This document shows positions 3,460-9,202 of a DNA stretch of 13,512 bases, in pieces; the first letter of the stretch is position 1; every line of letters starts with the position of its first letter. Below the pieces are notes generated by a model. The model searched no databases, was not told the DNA's origin, and saw only the letters and a list, made by a program, of their open reading frames with translations. The stretch lies in the IMG/VR virus record IMGVR_UViG_2693429524_000013; one strand, 5' to 3'. The position numbers and the translations under genes are program-made. The stretch comes from a virus (lineage: Duplodnaviria; Heunggongvirae; Uroviricota; Caudoviricetes).

Positions 3460-3584
3460 TTGATCACCTGCGATTTAAATTAACTCCCCTCAAAGAGTTC
3501 CGGTATAACCTCTCAAACCGCGACAGGCTCGGGCCGAAAAGTTATGCCGGAAATCTAAAGGGAAATTGATACAAGGAAAGGGAG

Positions 3585-3614
3585 ATAGCCCCGCACCGTC
3601 CAAGCGGGGGCTAT
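3585..3614 (-). terminator. GC-rich stem-loop in the leader of the capsid operon (possible attenuator)
   Basis: ATAGCCCCGC (3585-3594) pairs with GCGGGGGCTAT (3604-3614) with one bulge. On the minus strand it is followed by CUCCCUUUCCUUG, which is only moderately U-rich. Confidence 0.3.
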
Positions 3615-3787
3615 TCCATATGGGGAAAACCAACAACAGTTGGCTGATAGTTCACAGTATGGTTACGGTTACTAGAGAGCACTATCACGAAAGGCACTCC
3701 CCCGAATCAGTTCAGGCTGCGGTCACATCAGCGGGGAAATACCTTTCGGGATAGCTACCCACACAGAAAACCCGCAAAAGAAAACTG

Positions 3788-3796
3788 TGTGGATAA
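3788..3796. promoter_or_regulatory. consensus DnaA box (TGTGGATAA = TTATCCACA)
   Basis: Exact 9/9 match to the R-type DnaA box. It is a single copy in the non-coding leader. Confidence 0.3.
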
Positions 3797-3943
3797 CTAG
3801 CCCAATAGGAGAATTAATCGACCACTCAACGATGATCAGGGTAGTGTTATTTATAAGGCGGCACCGCTACCTGGTCGCCGTTACTTTGGAGGAAAATACG
3901 GCAAATCAAGATCTTCTCACATTGATATTGACGCCATATGTAT

Positions 3944-3972
3944 ATTATATCAGTATTTACTCACATTGTCAA
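3944..3972 (-). promoter_or_regulatory. perfect-consensus sigma70 promoter firing leftward toward the capsid operon
   Basis: The minus strand reads TTGACA (3972-3967), a 17-nt spacer, then TATAAT (3949-3944), with a TGn extended -10 (ctgaTATAAT). The -35 context is TTGACAAT, as in the three rightward promoters. Confidence 0.75.
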
Positions 3973-4070
3973 CACCCTGATTATATAAATTCTAATAATT
4001 AGCGTAGTAACGGTATTTTCAGACCTCTATCAATCCCATCAATACGTCACCCCACCCTTTAGACATATAC

Positions 4071-4101
4071 ATCTATCACTACTTTATAAAGCCTGATAGA
4101 T
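4071..4101. promoter_or_regulatory. operator-like inverted repeat ATCTATCA-N15-TGATAGAT
   Basis: 8-bp perfect arms at 4071-4078 and 4094-4101 with a central TTTATAAA. It is part of a set of five CTATCA/TGATAG hexamers between 4027 and 4222. Confidence 0.35.
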
Positions 4102-4195
4102 ATCCGTTGATCCTGATCAAGGTTTTCCGGGGATTTACCCGGTTATAGTTCGAATCAAGGAAGGGGAGCATTGATAGCACCCAAACCGAACAAAC

Positions 4196-4213
4196 AAATC
4201 AACTTCTCGCAAA
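4196..4213 (+). repeat. 18-nt motif AAATCAACTTCTCGCAAA, copy 1
   Basis: Identical to 4739-4756. It ends exactly 11 nt before ATG 4225. Confidence 0.85.
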
Positions 4214-4224
4214 AGGTGATAGTT

Positions 4225-4347
4225 ATGGGTATCAAGAACAGTGCCAGCGCATGGCAAAAGGCCAGGTTTCATCACCCACACATTGTTAAGGCAATTGAGG
4301 TGGTTGGAGTGTTAGCCCTGATGTTAGCTCTGTGTGTGGAGGTGTGA
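4225..4347 (+). CDS. 40-aa small membrane peptide (MGIKNSASAWQKARFHHPHIVKAIEVVGVLALMLALCVEV)
   Basis: Not in the ORF track because it is under 60 aa. AGGTGA SD lies 7 nt upstream. It has a hydrophobic C-terminal helix. Its stop is followed 1 nt later by another SD-led ATG (4349, 22 codons). Confidence 0.45.
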   Translation: MGIKNSASAWQKARFHHPHIVKAIEVVGVLALMLALCVEV

Positions 4348-4449
4348 GATGGGCAAAGGAGGCAAAGCATTTTTTAATAGGTCTGGCTATCCTGGATGTT
4401 CTACTAATCATGATTGAGCGGAGTTTATGAACAGCATTGAGAGGAGTTT

Positions 4450-4767: not shown

Positions 4768-5289
4768 ATGTTATTCCAGAAAGACAAAGAATCAGTAAAT
4801 AAAAGGCTTTTTAAAGAACTGGTAAAAATGTTCTTTCAGTACACTGCAGCGTTTTTGATAGCCGGGCCTTGGTTAATGGCTATCTGTTTTTACCCTGCTA
4901 CCTTGTTTATTGGCAGTAGCAAGTTCGGCGATGGCCCGTTTCATGTGGATATTGGTTTTATAGATTCTCTCCTGATCCGTCCTATAAATGCTGTTCTCAA
5001 TGCTTTCTACTTCCCAACTAGTCTAGAGGGGTGGGCGGTAACCTGGGGTGTTTTAGGCTTAGCATATGTATATTGGTTGGTTGGCTTTTTGTGGGGTGCA
5101 ATCTGTGCTCTCCTCGATATTGATACAGGATCAAGCCGTAGGAGTAGTGGTAATAATAGCGGAGCGGGTGTATATGCACACGTAGGTACCAGAGGGGTAA
5201 GTATCACCGCAGGTACCCGATTCGCTGGCGGCTGGCTGAGTATAGGCAAACGCGGCGTTAGTTGGAGAAAAAGCAAAAAACTGTTCTGA
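4768..5289 (+). CDS. integral membrane protein (173 aa) with a Gly/Ser/Arg-rich C-terminal tail reminiscent of DUF4236
   Basis: Two long hydrophobic segments are present: FFQYTAAFLIAGPWLMAICFYPATLFI and WAVTWGVLGLAYVYWLVGFLWGAICALL. The tail GTRGVSITAGTRFAGGWLSIGKRGVSWRK resembles DUF4236. A clean terminator follows. Confidence 0.75.
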   Translation: MLFQKDKESVNKRLFKELVKMFFQYTAAFLIAGPWLMAICFYPATLFIGSSKFGDGPFHVDIGFIDSLLIRPINAVLNAFYFPTSLEGWAVTWGVLGLAYVYWLVGFLWGAICALLDIDTGSSRRSSGNNSGAGVYAHVGTRGVSITAGTRFAGGWLSIGKRGVSWRKSKKLF

Positions 5290-5297
5290 CCTACCAG

Positions 5298-5318
5298 GGG
5301 GCCATCACGGCCCCTTTT
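5298..5318 (+). terminator. rho-independent terminator of the accessory cassette
   Basis: GGGGCC (5298-5303), loop ATCAC, GGCCCC (5309-5314), then TTTT. Confidence 0.8.
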
Positions 5319-5342
5319 CTATTTCCAGTCGCTATAGCTCCT

Positions 5343-5414
5343 GAGTAATTCCACTCCCTGAGGTCGTGATCAATTCCACACCCTACCCCCTGATCAATTA
5401 ACCCCTATTTAATG
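5343..5414. repeat. three ~24-bp direct repeats (TGATCAATTCCAC-type)
   Basis: AATTCCAC occurs at 5347-5354 and 5372-5379. TGATCAATT occurs at 5367-5375 and 5391-5399. A related 17-mer CCCCTGATCA(A/T)TTAACC occurs at 5387-5403 and 6284-6300. Confidence 0.6.
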
Positions 5415-5446
5415 GGTATTTAATGCCTATTTATTGATTTAATCCG
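5406..5446. repeat. AT-rich 11-bp phased repeats (TATTTAATG x3-4), resembling a DNA-unwinding element
   Basis: TATTTAATG at 5406-5414 and 5417-5425, TATTTATTG at 5428-5436, ATTTAATCC at 5438-5446. The period is 11 bp. Confidence 0.55.
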
Positions 5447-5514
5447 TTTTATGCCACAACCGCCCGGTTGACAGAGTAAGAGAGAGGGTGTAACCCTTTT
5501 TCGTAATACTAATG

Positions 5515-5530
5515 AAATCAATAAGTTAGC
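5515..5530 (+). repeat. 16-nt motif AAATCAATAAGTTAGC, copy 1 (matches IHF consensus WATCAANNNNTTR)
   Basis: Identical 16-mer at 13259-13274. The core AATCAATAAGTTA fits WATCAA-N4-TTR. Confidence 0.6.
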
Positions 5531-5584
5531 TTAATAGGCCTTTTCTCTATTTTTGTCAAATTTAACATACCCTAAAAAACTGCA

Positions 5585-5618
5585 AAATCTGGCTGCAAGA
5601 TTATCTGCAGCTGGATTT
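5585..5618 (+). other. 34-nt imperfect hairpin
   Basis: AAATCTGGCTGCA pairs with TGCAGCTGGATTT. There are 13 pairs, including two G-T pairs that are wobble only if the plus strand is read as RNA. Confidence 0.4.
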
Positions 5619-6520
5619 CTTACACCTCATTTTGTGGTATCACCCTGACTAGTTTGTGCATAAATTGAACAGTTTTTAACATTTCCTCTTCACCTGGTAA
5701 CCACACAAAAAGCTAAAAACGAGGCACAGATAATCTTAGAGGCCTATTTTCTTGTTATCACTCTGGAAACGTCGTAGAAGTGATTTTGATGAAAGGCGAC
5801 CTACCCTATTACACCCCCATTTTTTGTTATCACAATTGCATCCTGTGTGGCTATATGGCTATGTGCTGAAAGCGGTCTCGGGTGTGGGTGTCAGAAATAT
5901 CCATTAGCGGTATTTGAGCTTATGGGTAACTCGTCTGAGGTGCCAGGCAGGCGCTCCCCTACCTCCCTTTTTTCTTCTAACAATTCTCAAATATCACACC
6001 ACTGCCCACCACGTTGCTATTATGTTAATTCTTAAGCTTTGCTGTATGTTGTGCACATTATTTATTCAGGTGGCTGTACGTAAATTCTGTGCCCACTGAT
6101 CATGATTTTTAAATCAGATTTTGTAGTGCGGTTTCTTAGTGCTGATAAGATCTATTATGTTAAATGCAATTTTCCCAACCCTTCAAATCAATGACTTACA
6201 TGTAAGCATGCACTAACACCACACACAGCACATTAGACGTATAGATGGCTATATCCCACATATTTGATTGTTTTGTAGTCATTCCCCTGATCATTTAACC
6301 AGTATAGTTTGTTATCTGCAGACCACAAAATCGGAATTTACATCTGATTAACATAATCTGTTAGCATGATCACCATTACCCACACAACAATAACCCCATG
6401 TAAGCCTCTTCAGGCAATTTATCGGCGTGTTGGTGTGAACAGTCTTTCATGTTCTTTATGTATCAGTTGTCCTGTGTGGTGATTTGGTGGACTGCCCCAG
6501 GGGCCATACTTATGATGCCC

Positions 6521-6559
6521 GGTCAACATAGCTGTTGATAAAATCAACGGGTGTTGACC
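6521..6559. promoter_or_regulatory. twin palindromic operator-like sites
   Basis: TCAACA-tagc-TGTTGA (6523-6538) and TCAAC-gggt-GTTGA (6544-6557), with centres 20 bp apart. Outer arms GGTCAACA and TGTTGACC also pair. Confidence 0.45.
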
Positions 6560-6632
6560 TGCATATTTCCCACACATGAGAGGAAATCAGAGCAAAGAGA
6601 GAGGAGAGAGGTTTGTTAGTCACATATGGTGA

Positions 6633-6664
6633 TTTGAGCTCATCTCAAACCTTCTACGAAGGCC
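6633..6664 (+). repeat. two-hairpin module, copy A
   Basis: TTTGAG-ctcat-CTCAAA (6633-6649) abuts CCTTC-TAC-GAAGG (6650-6662), followed by CC. The 5' flank is TCACATATG. Confidence 0.65.
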
Positions 6665-6719
6665 TTTGCTAGTCAAAATCAAGTCACATTAGAGTCAAAT
6701 CAGATGCAATCAATCCCCC

Positions 6720-7051
6720 ACCTGTTGGGATTTCCCACATGTTCAACCATACACAGGAGCTAACCTGTTGGGATTTCCTACAACCCCTTTCAGTCATACT
6801 CAGGCACCACACCCCGGTAAATATTTCCCTACTACCCCGGAGAATTTCTCCGCACTACCTGTAAAGAATTTTCACACCTGTGTGTTTATACAATCATACT
6901 CTCCTGTTTTGCAGTCATTGCACCCATGATACACAGCCCTAACCTGTAAAATATTTTTACTACCCCGCCAATAATACGGCCCATACCTGTAAAATATTTT
7001 TACTACTACCTGTCAAAATCTTTTACTACTACCTGTAAAAATATTTGACAC
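6720..7051 (+). repeat. array of nine ~21-23 bp iterons, consensus ACCTGTAAAATATTTTTAC(TAC); candidate replication origin or centromere
   Basis: Units start at 6720, 6763, 6813, 6836, 6857, 6942, 6985, 7008 and 7031. The last three abut with exact 23-bp phasing. Each unit has an internal dyad. Confidence 0.8.
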
Positions 7052-7080
7052 TAATAGATAAAGTAATAGACCACACAATA

Positions 7081-7118
7081 GATCCCCCTAACCCCCCAGG
7101 GGGGAATGGGGAGGGATC
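7081..7118. repeat. G/C palindrome GATCCC...CCCCCC-A-GGGGGG...GGGATC followed by G-tracts
   Basis: C6-A-G6 lies at 7092-7104. Outer arms are GATCCC (7081-7086) and GGGATC (7113-7118). Downstream G-tracts (G6, G4, G3, G4) fit a loose G-quadruplex pattern. Confidence 0.6.
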
Positions 7119-7167
7119 AGAGAGTGGGGAAGGTTTTCTAAGGGAAAAGCTTAACCCACAAATGAAA

Positions 7168-7196
7168 GCCTAAAGAGCATTAGCGACTCTTTAGGC
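7168..7196 (-). terminator. 10-bp perfect hairpin, terminator-like on the minus strand
   Basis: GCCTAAAGAG (7168-7177) pairs with CTCTTTAGGC (7187-7196) across a 9-nt loop. The minus strand continues UUUCAUUUG. There is no U run on the plus side. Confidence 0.45.
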
Positions 7197-7208
7197 AATC
7201 TGTGTGTG

Positions 7209-7243
7209 GGGTGACAATGTATTCCATACATGACACGTCACCC
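7209..7243. other. nested hairpin
   Basis: Outer stem GGGTGAC (7209-7215) pairs with GTCACCC (7237-7243). The inner hairpin is ATGTAT-tcc-ATACAT (7217-7231). Confidence 0.5.
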
Positions 7244-7271
7244 TGCTCACATGTGTGGTCCACTTCGTGGA

Positions 7272-7310
7272 TTTGAGTTCACTCCGTAACTCAAACCCTC
7301 TACGAGGGCC
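7272..7310 (+). repeat. two-hairpin module, copy B (compensatory changes relative to copy A)
   Basis: TTTGAGTT-cactccgt-AACTCAAA (7272-7295) abuts CCCTC-TAC-GAGGG (7296-7308), followed by CC. It is preceded by CCAC-ttc-GTGG (7260-7270) and the flank TCACATGTG. Confidence 0.65.
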
Positions 7311-7356
7311 TTGTGTGGGGAGCGTAGTGCGATAGCACGTAGCTATATAATGTGGA

Positions 7357-7390
7357 GTCCGGATAAGAGACTTCTGTTTCCAATCCGGAC
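7357..7390. other. 8-bp perfect hairpin with an 18-nt loop
   Basis: GTCCGGAT (7357-7364) pairs with ATCCGGAC (7383-7390). Confidence 0.5.
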
Positions 7391-7410
7391 CGTTTAAGCG
7401 AGTGGTTTCT

Positions 7411-7436
7411 CGCGCGCGTGCACGCACACATATATA
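7411..7436. repeat. 26-nt perfectly alternating pyrimidine/purine tract (Z-DNA-prone)
   Basis: CGCGCGCGTGCACGCACACATATATA. It contains the 10-bp palindrome GCGTGCACGC (7416-7425). Confidence 0.7.
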
Positions 7437-7461
7437 AAGGATACACTCATAAATCGAAAAT

Positions 7462-7480
7462 AAGGCCCCTAAATGGCCTT
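7462..7480 (-). terminator. hairpin, terminator-like on the minus strand
   Basis: AAGGCC-cctaaat-GGCCTT. The minus strand continues AUUUUCGAUUU. Confidence 0.4.
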
Positions 7481-7616
7481 CTGGCTGCATTAACTAGTTT
7501 GAGTAGTGTAATTGCATTACCTGATGCTCAAATCGCGTTGTAGGGCCTCTTATGATGTTTGAGTTTAACACCCTCCAAAGTTTTAACAAAAAGTGCTCTC
7601 CCTCCATTGTGGGCCA

Positions 7617-7646
7617 TTGACAATCTTATTGCATAAATGCTATAAG
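7617..7646 (+). promoter_or_regulatory. strong sigma70 promoter P1 (rightward)
   Basis: TTGACA (7617-7622), 18-nt spacer, TATAAG (7641-7646), with TGc extended -10. The -35 context is TTGACAAT. Confidence 0.6.
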
Positions 7647-7744
7647 TTATTCTGTTTTTGACACGGTAGGGGACATTAATAATGCTTACCCCTTTGCTGT
7701 GGACTTGTTTGTACCTATAGCTCGCCTAAATGATAATGATTCCC

Positions 7745-7774
7745 ATTGACAATTGGTTGTCAATATGATAAGAT
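7745..7774 (+). promoter_or_regulatory. sigma70 promoter P2 (rightward) with an overlapping 20-bp palindromic operator
   Basis: TTGACA (7746-7751), 17-nt spacer, TAAGAT (7769-7774), with TGa extended -10. The operator ATTGACAA-ttgg-TTGTCAAT spans 7745-7764. Confidence 0.6.
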
Positions 7775-7936
7775 TATAGATAGTGGGAGAAACAGATCCG
7801 GAGGTCAACGTGGAACTGAGCGACGCTATAGCGATCATCAACCTGGCTGTAATGTGGTGCGGTGTTGCCTACATAGCCGGAGTAACTGCAATCGACAACC
7901 TTGAAGAAAAAATGATAGATAAATACAAAAAGATTG

Positions 7937-7965
7937 TTGACAATCTCGCAAATAGCTGATAAAAT
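7937..7965 (+). promoter_or_regulatory. strong sigma70 promoter P3 (rightward)
   Basis: TTGACA (7937-7942), 17-nt spacer, TAAAAT (7960-7965), with TGa extended -10. The spacer contains TCTCGCAAA (7944-7952), the core of the 18-nt motif. Confidence 0.7.
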
Positions 7966-8016
7966 ATAAAGCATAGGGTAATTCTCATCATAGTGAATTT
8001 TCCTTTAATGAACTGG

Positions 8017-8044
8017 CGGGAGCTATTAGTTCCCGTTTCTTTTT
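8017..8044 (+). terminator. rho-independent terminator/attenuator between P3 and the first early gene
   Basis: CGGGA (8017-8021), 9-nt loop, TCCCG (8031-8035), then TTTCTTTTT. It lies ~50-70 nt downstream of the predicted P3 start and 44 nt upstream of ATG 8088. Confidence 0.6.
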
Positions 8045-8087
8045 AACCCTATATCGCACAGGCGGTGAGCTAACAGGAGATTGAATC

Positions 8088-8297
8088 ATGGCTAAAACCG
8101 GACCGATAAGCCAGCTGGTAAACTGGACTACTGACGAAATCGTCGAGAACGTGCTTAAAGGTAACTTTCGCAAAACTTCCGTTTATGCATTTATTCGAAA
8201 ACATAAAGGAGAATATCCACACATTGAAGCGGCAATAGAAAGATTAAACTTTATTAAACTTGAGCGCCAGCTGGAAAGATATAAACATCTGATTTAA
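8088..8297 (+). CDS. small early protein (69 aa), possible Cro/excisionase-like DNA-binding protein
   Basis: AGGAG SD lies 8 nt upstream. It is the first gene after the tandem promoters. The function call is weak. Confidence 0.7.
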   Translation: MAKTGPISQLVNWTTDEIVENVLKGNFRKTSVYAFIRKHKGEYPHIEAAIERLNFIKLERQLERYKHLI

Positions 8298-8317
8298 TAA
8301 ATAATTGTGAGGGAATT

Positions 8318-9202
8318 ATGGCAAACAATAAACTGGGGGCACATTTCACCCCCATTTTTAAACGTTTTATCAAGTATAATTTTGAAAATCCAATTGCAAA
8401 AACTACAACAGGCAAAGAGAGATTTAATTTAAATGCGACGGAATTGATAATTTACGGGGAAATGGTTGGCTTTCATTTAAACGGCAAAGAAATATTCATC
8501 TCGGAGCAGACCTTAGCAGATGATTGGGATTTTTCAAGACCAACGATTATTAAAGCTATTAAATCTCTAGTAAATGCTGGGATTATTTCTAAAGATAACC
8601 GGAAAGGCAAATCTAACATTTACAAACTGTTAATTACACCTGAGCAGTTTGATAAAATGTGCGATGAGCAGGGTATTAAAACCTTAGACAGTGTGGGAGA
8701 CAGCAAAGAGGCACCTGCTACACAGGCCCAAGATAATCAACAGGAAGCCCCAAAACAAGCCACACAGCAGCCTGAAAAGCCCGAGGCAATGCAATCCCCT
8801 TCCCAACCTAAAAAAGAACACAGAGAACGCCGTAGAGACGCTGGCAAACGTGAAATAGATGAGCACGGTTATCCGATTCTGACAAGCGATGAAATGAATG
8901 CCAGATATAAAGTAATTCAGGCCGCATTTAAAGATCAGAAGAGAATTAAATTATCTGAATTGCGTGATACATTTTACGGGCCGGAGGTGATGGATAAAAT
9001 TAAAGGCACTATTCCTGATAAAATCTGGAAAGAGGAAGATTACTGGCACCTGACAGAGCAGGCCCTTAAGGTAGCTCAACACGTGGTTAAAAGAGGCAAA
9101 TCAATTATTATTGATTCTATTAGTCATGGCTATGATGCACCGAAAGAAAGGTTGTGGAACAACTGCAAGCTTGTAAAAGGCGAATTGACAATTACAAAAT
9201 AA
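8318..9202 (+). CDS. replication initiator candidate: N-terminal winged-HTH (lambda O / replisome-organiser-like), Gln/Pro-rich linker, C-terminal domain (294 aa)
   Basis: The N-terminal segment ISEQTLADDWDFSRPTIIKAIKSLVNAGIISKDNRKGKSNIYKL is a classic wHTH of phage/plasmid initiators. A low-complexity linker APATQAQDNQQEAPKQATQQPEKPEAMQSPSQPKK follows. The three-part architecture resembles lambda O. Confidence 0.6.
   Translation: MANNKLGAHFTPIFKRFIKYNFENPIAKTTTGKERFNLNATELIIYGEMVGFHLNGKEIFISEQTLADDWDFSRPTIIKAIKSLVNAGIISKDNRKGKSNIYKLLITPEQFDKMCDEQGIKTLDSVGDSKEAPATQAQDNQQEAPKQATQQPEKPEAMQSPSQPKKEHRERRRDAGKREIDEHGYPILTSDEMNARYKVIQAAFKDQKRIKLSELRDTFYGPEVMDKIKGTIPDKIWKEEDYWHLTEQALKVAQHVVKRGKSIIIDSISHGYDAPKERLWNNCKLVKGELTITK

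Follow-up and report, generated by a model that had tools for sequence, protein, structure and literature searches.

We analyzed positions 5320-8087 of a 13,512-nt stretch of DNA (the window; IMG/VR record IMGVR_UViG_2693429524_000013, filed under the tailed phages, Caudoviricetes). A first-pass annotation, made from the letters alone, had described this part as about 2.8 kb without a credible gene, rich in repeats and hairpins, in an otherwise tightly packed phage genome. We lean toward a different reading, in which it is a composite cis-acting region of an Escherichia coli plasmid and this plasmid acts as an extrachromosomal satellite of virulent myoviruses of the rV5 type (Vequintavirus). 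Sequence analysis establishes four things on which this reading draws, namely the absence of genes, purifying selection, the co-variation of iterons with the replication initiator (Rep), and a specific bipartite match to the phage terminus.

The gene-free region has counterparts of 85-92% identity in circular E. coli plasmids of 13.2-13.7 kb, and the two ends of the window adjoined each other in the related plasmids, which indicates that the window is one complete circular copy of the element. We found nine complete relatives (L001-L009; 13.2-13.7 kb), all of them plasmids, and a whole-element alignment of the ten copies was the basis of the comparisons reported here. Among 5426 complete E. 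coli genomes the region was present in seven, where all ten of its places were on plasmids and none was chromosomal; no integrase was found in the element. It is thus not a member of the PICI, P4 or PLE families. When 5.8 billion proteins were searched with the major capsid protein (MCP), the relatives were all from E. coli and all at least 82% identical. The closest 90%-identity cluster alone held 441 sequence variants, on contigs of 13.4-14.4 kb, and the most divergent lineage, P0018, was a 4.9-kb contig without the region. The MCP search returned no more distant relatives from GTDB genomes or IMG/VR, and at normal thresholds none of 50,697 phage records matched the region by BLASTN, whether in near or distant mode. 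The link to phages was visible only through protein homology and a relaxed short-match DNA search.

The element has about 16 genes. They include those for the MCP, a neck protein, a Dit-like tail-tube initiator, and a tape-measure protein (TMP) with its upstream genes, as well as an O-like/DnaD-like replication initiator and a few small helix-turn-helix (HTH) and membrane proteins; a small gene upstream of the MCP gene has a position like that of the rV5 head-decoration gene. The homologues in rV5-like phages were 51% identical for the tube initiator, 45% for the Ne1 neck protein, 26% for the TMP and 23% for the MCP. No terminase, portal, protease, sheath, baseplate, fiber or lysis gene was present in the gene inventory. 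Lacking these and partition genes, the element cannot be an autonomous phage. Both the tightly packed phage genome and the phage-plasmid lifestyle of the first-pass annotation have therefore to be given up in favor of a small plasmid, 13.5 kb in all, with a partial phage module.

Stop counts, a codon-phase test, the open reading frames (ORFs) of the relatives and a small-ORF screen indicated that 5320-7809 contains no protein gene. All six frames of 5400-6620 had 19-32 stops each, in the window and in every one of the nine relatives. Variable columns in 5400-6620 were distributed over the three codon positions without phase (67/69/73, p=0.875); the same test on the MCP gene gave 130/19/40 (p=1e-24). 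When 51 ORFs of 20 codons or more were screened, not one combined conservation, a Shine-Dalgarno (SD) sequence and third-position bias; the PGAP annotation of the relatives placed no gene within the counterpart of 5320-7809, and no tRNA or tmRNA was found in the region. The longest open frames, 5717-6005 and 5917-6102, were Cys/His-rich, had no phase bias and were broken in the window and in L007. That a decayed pseudogene or an overlooked gene lies here is an idea to which we accordingly give next to no credence. An open frame of 96-105 codons (5717-6005/6032) does occur in eight of the nine relatives, but it shows no codon-phase bias (16/12/16) and no SD, and the region is poor in indels yet without 3-periodicity. 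The first-pass annotation had named related genomes as the place where an intact gene might be found at this position, and none of the nine complete relatives carries one.

The gene-free claim, which had been extended to 8087, held for 5320-7809 and failed for orf49, a 49-aa gene on the + strand (GTG at 7810, end at 7959). It has the SD GGAGG at 7800-7804, its protein is conserved, its variable sites fall 8/10/17 by codon position, and PGAP calls it WP_157794903 in the relatives; the product is probably a membrane protein. On the left, the gene-free stretch is bordered by a terminator-like hairpin at 5296-5316 (+ strand; an 8-bp stem with six GC pairs, then a T-run), which closes the orf173 transcription unit.

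The two halves of the stretch evolve oppositely: 5400-6620 is nearly free of indels, whereas 6620-7700 is a mosaic of alternative sequences and indels, like the rep gene. Variable columns amounted to 19% in 5400-6620 and 7-13% in its conserved islands, compared with 20-46% at the third codon positions of the element's genes. The left block evolves at about half the synonymous rate, and its low column variability argues for purifying selection. By variability, codon phase, folding and shared 12-mers, 5400-6620 was delimited as a conserved non-coding block in which short exact motifs of the rV5-like phage terminus recur in scrambled order.

One explanation for a block that is conserved without coding capacity is that it encodes one or more long or small non-coding RNAs (ncRNAs), and long structured ncRNAs had been proposed at first pass. 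At 5585-5616 the sequence shows a 12-bp hairpin that, having two G-U pairs, would form only in + strand RNA, and it would suit such a role. However, there was no excess RNA folding in 5400-6600 (z-scores from -2.5 to +1.9 on both strands), and Rfam gave no match at gathering thresholds in the region and only L20_leader (E=0.72) when matches up to E=1 were admitted. Strong promoter/terminator pairs were absent from the block, and conservation was concentrated in phage-shared segments on either strand. We consider an ncRNA highly improbable. The description of the stretch as saturated with hairpins likewise did not apply to 5400-6600, where z-scores are ordinary, although it did to a hairpin cluster at 6961-7440.

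The strongest likeness of the block to phage DNA was a 24-nt motif at 5972-5995 (+ strand; TTCTTCTAACAATTCTCAAATATC), identical at 23 of 24 positions to nt 27-50 of the Vequintavirus direct terminal repeat (DTR). In rV5 it was the best match in the whole 136-kb genome (E=0.002) and lay inside gene-poor DNA. We found the 24-mer in about 110 Vequintavirus genomes, always in unannotated DNA except for the terminal-repeat (repeat_region) annotation of Gotham, where it is inside the annotated 459-bp terminal repeat. In the three records that start at the physical end (Gotham, HdK5 and bov22_2), it stands at nt 27-50, with two copies per genome. A 458-bp terminal redundancy has been published for HdK5/EdH4, and a 514-bp DTR with T7-type packaging for a related genus (PMC6563267; PMC9862379).

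The three phage records start at GGCGGACG, and GCTGCCA precedes GGCGGACG in the concatemer. With a slash for the cut, the phage junction reads GCTGCCA/GGCGGACG...(N18)...TTCTTATAAYAATTCTCAAATATC, and all ten plasmids carry GGTGCCA/GGCAGGCG...(N18)...TTCTTCTAACAATTCTCAAATATC. The counterpart of the physical left end of the phage is TGCCA/GGC at 5941-5948 (+ strand), with the predicted cut between 5945 and 5946, 26 nt upstream of the 24-mer. Phage and plasmid were identical at 11 of 13 positions around the cut, 3 of 18 in the spacer and 23 of 24 in the motif, with the same 26-nt offset. This bipartite site (cut octamer plus 24-mer) was invariant in 14 plasmid copies, the ten plasmids and four from metagenomes.

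We also compared the whole block with the 136-kb rV5 genome. Six of the 33 BLAST matches of at least 25 bits fell within 700 nt on either side of the DTR start, an interval that makes up 1% of the genome; with forty shuffled queries the average there was 0.25, and none had more than 2. The block shared 21 exact 12-mers with a 3-kb segment at the rV5 terminus, against a genome mean of 1.4 (z=6.9), while other plasmid regions, coding or non-coding, shared at most seven anywhere in the phage. Exact phage matches of at least 11 nt all lay within 5410-6579 (14/14), none being in the origin half, and within the block 9% of columns were variable in phage-matching segments and 20% elsewhere (Fisher p=0.001). 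The island 5540-5760, where conservation is highest (7% variable columns), holds TCAAATTTAACATACC and ACCACACAAA, both of which also occur 400-520 nt upstream of the phage DTR. The ATGTAAGCCTCTTCAGGCAAT motif at 6398-6418 agrees at 19 of 21 positions with phage DNA some 210-250 nt upstream of the DTR, of which there is a second copy about 1.3 kb upstream. At the left edge, 5324-5344 matched, in inverted orientation and at 19 of 21 positions, the 21 nt just outside the phage DTR boundary (-29 to -9). A CCACAC(A)-type motif was enriched in both regions, with 13 copies in 5376-7313, and the segments at the phage terminus were the richest of the phage genome. Since the shared sites are not collinear, block and terminus have in common a set of short sites and not an alignable homologue. 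The genome-end region offered as an option at first pass survives in an unexpected form, in that the left half reproduces the DTR-boundary sequence of rV5-like phages.

On the phage side, about 3.5 kb of gene-poor DNA lies around the terminal repeat (rV5_ev147 102500-106000; Gotham 460-1470). The DNA just after the terminal repeat has iteron-like TGTTTACAC repeats, and the terminus has the highest CCACAC/CACACA density of the genome. Two further candidate matches were set aside. A second rV5 locus at 116.9 kb was not used as evidence, its similarity score being 20 where random segments reach 22, and a match of 7450-7483 to the 'inverted repeat B' of the T5 terminal repeat (E=9) was taken as chance.

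The right half of the stretch holds the iteron array that had been noticed at first pass. By repeat finding and Rep co-variation we delimited it to 6719-7052 (+ strand), with 11 direct iteron-like units of about 23 bp that are imperfect palindromes with an AT-rich center. Four type-A units, TACCTGTAAAATATTTTTAC, lie at the end of the array (6941-7052), three of them at 23-bp spacing, and all eight copies of ACCTGT that one strand of the element carries fall within 6720-7036. The array is followed by an AT-rich stretch (7053-7083; 74% A+T) and by the G/C palindrome CCCCCTAACCCCCCAGGGGGGAATGGGGAGGG (7084-7116), both conserved in all relatives; 7053-7116 is probably the unwinding region and origin boundary. 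The iteron array contained no perfect DnaA box (TTATCCACA), the sole one in the element being at 3788. The trans-acting partners of the origin are encoded at 8088-9202 on the + strand, by orf69 (8088-8297) and rep (8318-9202). Rep matched PHROG O-like replication initiators with E=1e-10 to 1e-8. Against Pfam it passed for HTH_36 (26.7 bits, cut-off 25) and fell below for DnaD_N (21.5, cut-off 27), and no Pfam initiator family (Phage_rep_O or plasmid Rep) was reached at the gathering threshold.

The domains of Rep are mosaic among the family members, and the members carry different tandem iterons. We found that the predicted recognition helix of Rep tracks the iteron type in nine of nine elements. 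Type A goes with the helix SRPT(I/V)I (the window and L004), type G with TEKTVR (L007 and L003), type T with DRGKIV (L001 and L006), type E or E2 with SDRKI(R/I) (L005 and L002), and the type of L008 with TPKTVR. Whole-domain Rep identities gave an apparent mismatch with iteron type for L004 and L009; the agreement is at the level of the recognition helix. L009 has an unrelated Rep, and a 560-bp insertion next to its array contains three copies of a new iteron. The co-variation of helix and iteron, together with L009's own iterons, is strong comparative evidence that the array is a Rep-binding origin, and the prediction that 6719-7116 is the iteron origin of the plasmid is well supported. The replication and incompatibility control proposed at first pass is supported for the right half, given this co-variation and the plasmid-only occurrence. 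The partition function proposed with it is not, as neither a ParA/ParB gene nor a centromere-like array was identified in the element. The arrays in the window (6719-6900) and in L001-L009 also hold single units of the main iteron types of other members, which could be incompatibility decoys or recombination relics. The iteron-Rep mosaic is a natural series of specificity swaps for incompatibility studies.

Between the origin and rep, three tandem promoters had been noted at first pass, of which the last two are conserved. P1 (7617-7646, + strand; TTGACA-18-TATAAG) is deleted in L002, L003, L004 and L007, that is, in four of nine relatives, and is thus dispensable. P2 (7746-7774, + strand; TTGACA-17-TAAGAT, extended -10) and a leftward partner (7763-7736) form a divergent pair at 7736-7774 that shares the operator-like palindrome TTGACAATTGGTTGTCAA (7746-7763) and is conserved in all relatives. 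P3 (7937-7965, + strand; TTGACA-17-TAAAAT, 11/12, extended -10) lies inside the 3' end of orf49, is conserved, and is predicted to drive the orf69-rep operon. In the leader of this operon an attenuator- or terminator-like hairpin with a U-run (8015-8046, + strand) was kept in all ten elements. The stem of L008 is unrelated in sequence, and G-U pairs point to + strand RNA. A GC hairpin with a U-run in every copy, in L008 with an unrelated stem, indicates a leader attenuator.

A rival reading confines the stretch to plasmid housekeeping, with the origin, control of copy number, resolution by Xer and perhaps sites for host factors or of a partition-like kind; the likeness to rV5 would be a relic of descent or recombination from an rV5-like ancestor, and the plasmid would not interact with phages today. 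Iteron-Rep co-variation and plasmid-only occurrence account fully for the right half, the structural genes mark the element as phage-derived, and the shared motifs are short and scrambled. However, where proteins have diverged to 23-51% identity, unconstrained non-coding DNA of such age should keep nothing, and yet the 24-mer is near-identical and the cut-site octamer stands at an equal offset. Both sites are invariant in the 14 copies, and the neighboring 20 nt are the most variable patch of the block. This juxtaposition speaks for recognition, at the present day, by a factor that plasmid and phage have in common, as does a near-identical non-coding 24-mer beside proteins so diverged. We regard housekeeping alone as unlikely, if still worth serious consideration. 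Because the 24-mer adjoins the physical end at a conserved spacing, the end-generating (terminase) machinery of the phage is the most likely factor, and we infer that the bipartite match functions as a packaging or end signal.

We think it very unlikely that the block is instead a helper-activated second origin, which would copy a phage replication origin or enhancer, perhaps situated in the gene-poor DNA beside the terminus, and let phage replication proteins amplify the plasmid on infection. The CCACAC(A)-type motifs enriched in both the block and the gene-poor phage terminus, and the iteron-like repeats in the phage just after the DTR, are what such an origin would draw on. The strongest match, on the other hand, is the physical end itself with its exact spacing to the cut; the origin of rV5 is unmapped, and the plasmid already has a complete iteron origin.

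A second site common to plasmid and phage is a dif/cer-like XerCD site at 6138-6165 (+ strand), AGTGCTGATAA-GATCTA-TTATGTTAAAT, with 11-bp arms and a 6-bp spacer. Its XerD arm (6155-6165, TTATGTTAAAT) is exactly that of E. coli dif, and the arm and the spacer GATCTA are invariant in all copies. The XerC arm agrees with GGTGCGCATAA at 8 of 11 positions in the window (AGTGCTGATAA) and at 7 of 11 in the relatives (AGTGTAGATAA). The palindrome TGATTTTTAAATCA at 6104-6117 is a poor ARG box. In the phage DTR, at nt 169-196, a site of this layout reads GGTGCGCATAA-TGGGTA-TTATGTTAAAT; both of its arms equal those of dif, and it is unique in the genome (169-197 in the Gotham record L016, 170-197 in HdK5, L018, and 104517-104544 in rV5_ev147). 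We found no description of a dif-identical site in the DTR of rV5-like phages. Judged by its sequence, the plasmid site probably resolves multimers or monomerizes concatemeric DNA. The phage site may allow XerCD to circularize the incoming genome, by analogy with Cre-lox in P1.

A plasmid-borne satellite of rV5-like phages is the best single explanation of the element, because it has partial, diverged rV5-type structural genes, a narrow size range of 13.2-14.4 kb and no packaging genes. This size fits a capsid of the T=4 class, by analogy with P4 and SaPI. From the sequence we infer recognition by terminase, packaging, Xer activity and a satellite lifestyle, which would fit together as two modules. 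In the first (about 6620-8087), a dimeric lambda-O-like Rep would bind the palindromic 23-bp iterons of 6719-7052 and open the adjacent AT-rich stretch beside the G/C palindrome. The rep operon would be transcribed from P2 and P3 and throttled by the leader hairpin with its U-run, and the iteron/Rep specificities swapped between family members would define incompatibility types. The second module (about 5400-6620) would serve the interaction with the helper by reproducing the signals of the left DTR boundary (TGCCA/GGC, 18-nt spacer, 24-nt motif and other short sites). On infection, the phage terminase or an accessory end-binding protein would recognize plasmid concatemers, cut them between 5945 and 5946, and package them. 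The packaged DNA would presumably enter small capsids made of the plasmid's own capsid protein, and the dif-like site would resolve multimers, or re-circularize incoming DNA, to monomers.

Several observations weigh against this proposal. Neither the order nor the orientation of the shared motifs follows that of the phage, and only the left DTR boundary has a counterpart in the plasmid, the right boundary having none. A weaker paralogue of the 24-mer occurs elsewhere in rV5, at 116.9 kb, so that some phage protein other than the terminase could be the one that binds the motif. For most of the 1.2-kb block, its most conserved island included, no site is assigned. The XerC arm of the dif-like site is degenerate (7-8/11), the site is inverted relative to the 24-mer when compared with the phage, and no ArgR/PepA or ArcA boxes were recognized near it when the upstream DNA was inspected by eye. 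The helper would be a virulent phage, which may degrade or shut off host and plasmid DNA. The plasmid was not found among IMG/VR viral contigs by the MCP search or a scan for the terminus motif; the motif scans gave no hit in GTDB genomes, one in IMG/VR, which was a phage fragment, and in metagenomes only the plasmid family, phages and one unrelated sequence. The relatives are all about 90% identical, which limits comparative power.

The same sequence evidence that suggests packaging mimicry, together with the diverged copies of assembly proteins that the element encodes, would also be expected of an anti-phage decoy. Such a plasmid, itself not transferred, would protect the population by using its end-site copies and its variants of the neck, tube-initiator, capsid and tape-measure proteins to titrate or poison the packaging and assembly of rV5. 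Interference with tail assembly has been described as a defense strategy (PMC11364771), and the variable membrane protein of orf173, beside the block, resembles a cargo or defense slot. On the other hand, the tight sizes of 13.2-14.4 kb over hundreds of copies suggest a packaging-size constraint, and a complete capsid protein with a decoration-like neighbor and a full tape measure suggests that particles are built. The two roles are also compatible, and known satellites do both. We hold a decoy that is never transferred to be quite unlikely.

If the element is a satellite of rV5-like phages, its end signal would be the first satellite signal of the T7-type DTR kind. We can put forward only tentatively that it stands for a new class of satellite, a free iteron plasmid that copies a left DTR boundary and forms its own small particles from its diverged capsid, neck, tube-initiator and tape-measure proteins, with helper and satellite both using host XerCD at dif-like sites near the terminus to make circles or monomers of their DNA once it has entered the cell. 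We found no description of a Vequintavirinae satellite in the literature, and according to a 2025 review plasmid satellites are almost unknown. On the satellite reading, a common E. coli plasmid regarded as cryptic and non-mobilizable would be transferable through lytic rV5-like phages. Such phages are in use for O157 typing and have been proposed for therapy, and one member of the plasmid family has strA/strB and tet genes. The system could inform how DTR-type terminases recognize ends, how a plasmid satellite uses a virulent helper, and what Xer recombination contributes to the circularization of phage and satellite genomes.

The remaining features of the stretch are repeats and hairpins, and the 24-bp repeats, 11-bp AT-rich repeats, twin palindromes and C/G palindrome of the first-pass annotation are all present. 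The 24-bp repeats (5336-5359 and 5361-5384) lie in a variable segment, 5320-5400, that the window shares only with L004 and, in part, L009. At 5404-5436 there follow three phased copies of an 11-bp AT-rich repeat, CCTATTTAATG (Tandem Repeats Finder: period 11, 2.7 copies); some relatives have one extra copy, and the repeats are candidates for intrinsically bent DNA. The twin palindromes, two copies of RTCAAC-N4-GTTGAY at 6521-6559, look like an operator, and the first copy is not conserved in L001 and L004.

The hairpin cluster of the right half proved to be real. Folding z-scores were -3 to -5 on both strands in 6961-7440, and the minimum free energy of 7081-7520 was -170 kcal/mol, compared with -97 to -114 for other 440-nt non-coding pieces. 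The very stable hairpins, at 7081-7440 on both strands, are partly mosaic between relatives, with two alleles at 7310-7400, and include a terminator-like hairpin at 7168-7196 (- strand). A 26-nt alternating purine/pyrimidine tract at 7411-7436, also noted at first pass, was the longest in the window and exceeded all of 500 shuffles (mean 14, maximum 25). Farther right, the terminator-like hairpin AAGGCCATTTAGGGGCCTT with a T-run (7462-7480, - strand), suited to leftward transcripts, is conserved.

Two copies of a hairpin module were present. Copy 1 (6620-6672) is an insertion of about 52 bp specific to the window, and copy 2 (7244-7316), with three hairpins, is an insertion shared with L008 only. 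The first-pass annotation had called these modules covarying, and compensatory differences between the copies were indeed found; as insertions limited to the window and one relative they are not features of the family. The module, of 50-70 nt, consists of CCAC..GTGG, then TTTGAG..CTCAAA or TTAGC..GCTAA, then CCYTC..GARGG, and ends in CCTT. It also occurs in L008 near that plasmid's gap 3, and the places of insertion vary among family members. The module had no match in the complete E. coli genomes, which sets it apart from known E. coli repeat families, and it may be a miniature mobile hairpin element.

Some observations concern the rest of the element and its relatives. Record L003 (NZ_CP043822.1, 39.6 kb) consists of three copies of the element head to tail that differ slightly from each other, and may be a real multimer or a long-read assembly artefact. 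A 30-kb contig (L011, NTNY01000053.1) has at 13452-21041 an insertion in the plasmid backbone, between the neck and tape-measure genes, with strA/strB-like aminoglycoside phosphotransferase, DDE transposase and tet-type regulator genes. The backbone is thus able to carry resistance genes, and this copy is above the usual size range. No gene of the element varies more than orf173 (4768-5289), which adjoins the gene-free stretch on the left and encodes a hydrophobic membrane protein; 358 of its 522 columns vary, and its product comes in several lengths (173-236 aa). The locus has the look of a slot for variable cargo, perhaps serving exclusion or defense. Within 1501-1700, about 85 nt of the 5' end of the Dit-like gene (roughly 1513-1597) are peculiar to the window (8% identity and 92% gaps against the relatives), which makes the Dit-like ORF 306 aa long in the window as compared to 255-267 aa in the relatives.

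A second non-coding gap of about 1 kb, at 3460-4449, showed no codon phase in its variable columns (p=0.39). On its minus strand is a perfect 12/12 sigma-70 promoter (3972-3944), and folding downstream of this promoter gave z-scores of -4.8 to -5.9 on the minus strand versus -0.3 to -2.1 on the plus strand. Alignment variation in this leader region fell mostly in unpaired columns, with four compensatory pairs, and the perfect DnaA box at 3788 (TGTGGATAA) is inside one stem. The minus strand of the gap looks like a structured leader of about 480 nt for the orf111/capsid operon.

The dif-like site resembles known XerCD sites (dif, cer/psi/parB of CloDF13, IMEX attP) in its order of 11-bp arm, 6-bp spacer and 11-bp arm, in a XerD arm identical to that of dif, and in belonging to a small multicopy plasmid that needs multimer resolution. 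Its XerC arm ends in GATAA, as does that of CloDF13 parB. It differs in that the XerC arm is degenerate, accessory boxes were not recognized, and a kindred site lies in the DTR of the presumed helper.

The origin is like lambda ori with its O protein and like the iteron theta origins of pSC101, R6K and P1 oriR in having direct dyad sites of about 20 bp at a spacing of about two helical turns. As in those origins, AT-rich DNA and then a palindrome follow the iterons, and as in lambda O an N-terminal winged HTH of the initiator co-varies with the iterons while the C-terminal domain is exchangeable. Modular swapping of initiator domains is found among lambdoid phages as well. The iterons of the plasmid are neither inside the initiator gene, as in lambda, nor immediately adjacent to it, but 1.3 kb upstream of rep; further differences from lambda and the iteron plasmids are that each array holds several iteron types and that Rep falls below the Pfam initiator thresholds.

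With the phage-plasmids P1, N15 and SSU5 the element shares the combination of structural genes and a plasmid replicon on one extrachromosomal molecule. It differs from them by its partial virion module at 13.5 kb and by the lack of packaging, lysis and partition genes.

Compared with P4, PICI, PLE and PICMI, the element stands apart as a free plasmid that has an iteron replicon of its own, lacks an integrase and was never found in a chromosome. It differs from them further in that its presumed helper has short direct terminal repeats (T7-type) rather than cos or headful packaging, and in that it carries its own capsid, neck, tube-initiator and tape-measure homologues. In other respects it is much like them. 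Its 16 or so genes make up an incomplete virion and packaging set, as in satellites, and the helper end signal that satellites carry would be represented by the bipartite match to the left DTR boundary. As with the copy of the P2 cos site in P4 and the cos/pac mimicry of PICI, PLE and PICMI, a small element without a terminase has a near-exact copy of a helper end signal, and its size fits a small capsid of the T=4 class. Virulent helpers also occur among known satellites, as in PLE/ICP1 and in PICMI (PMC10803314).

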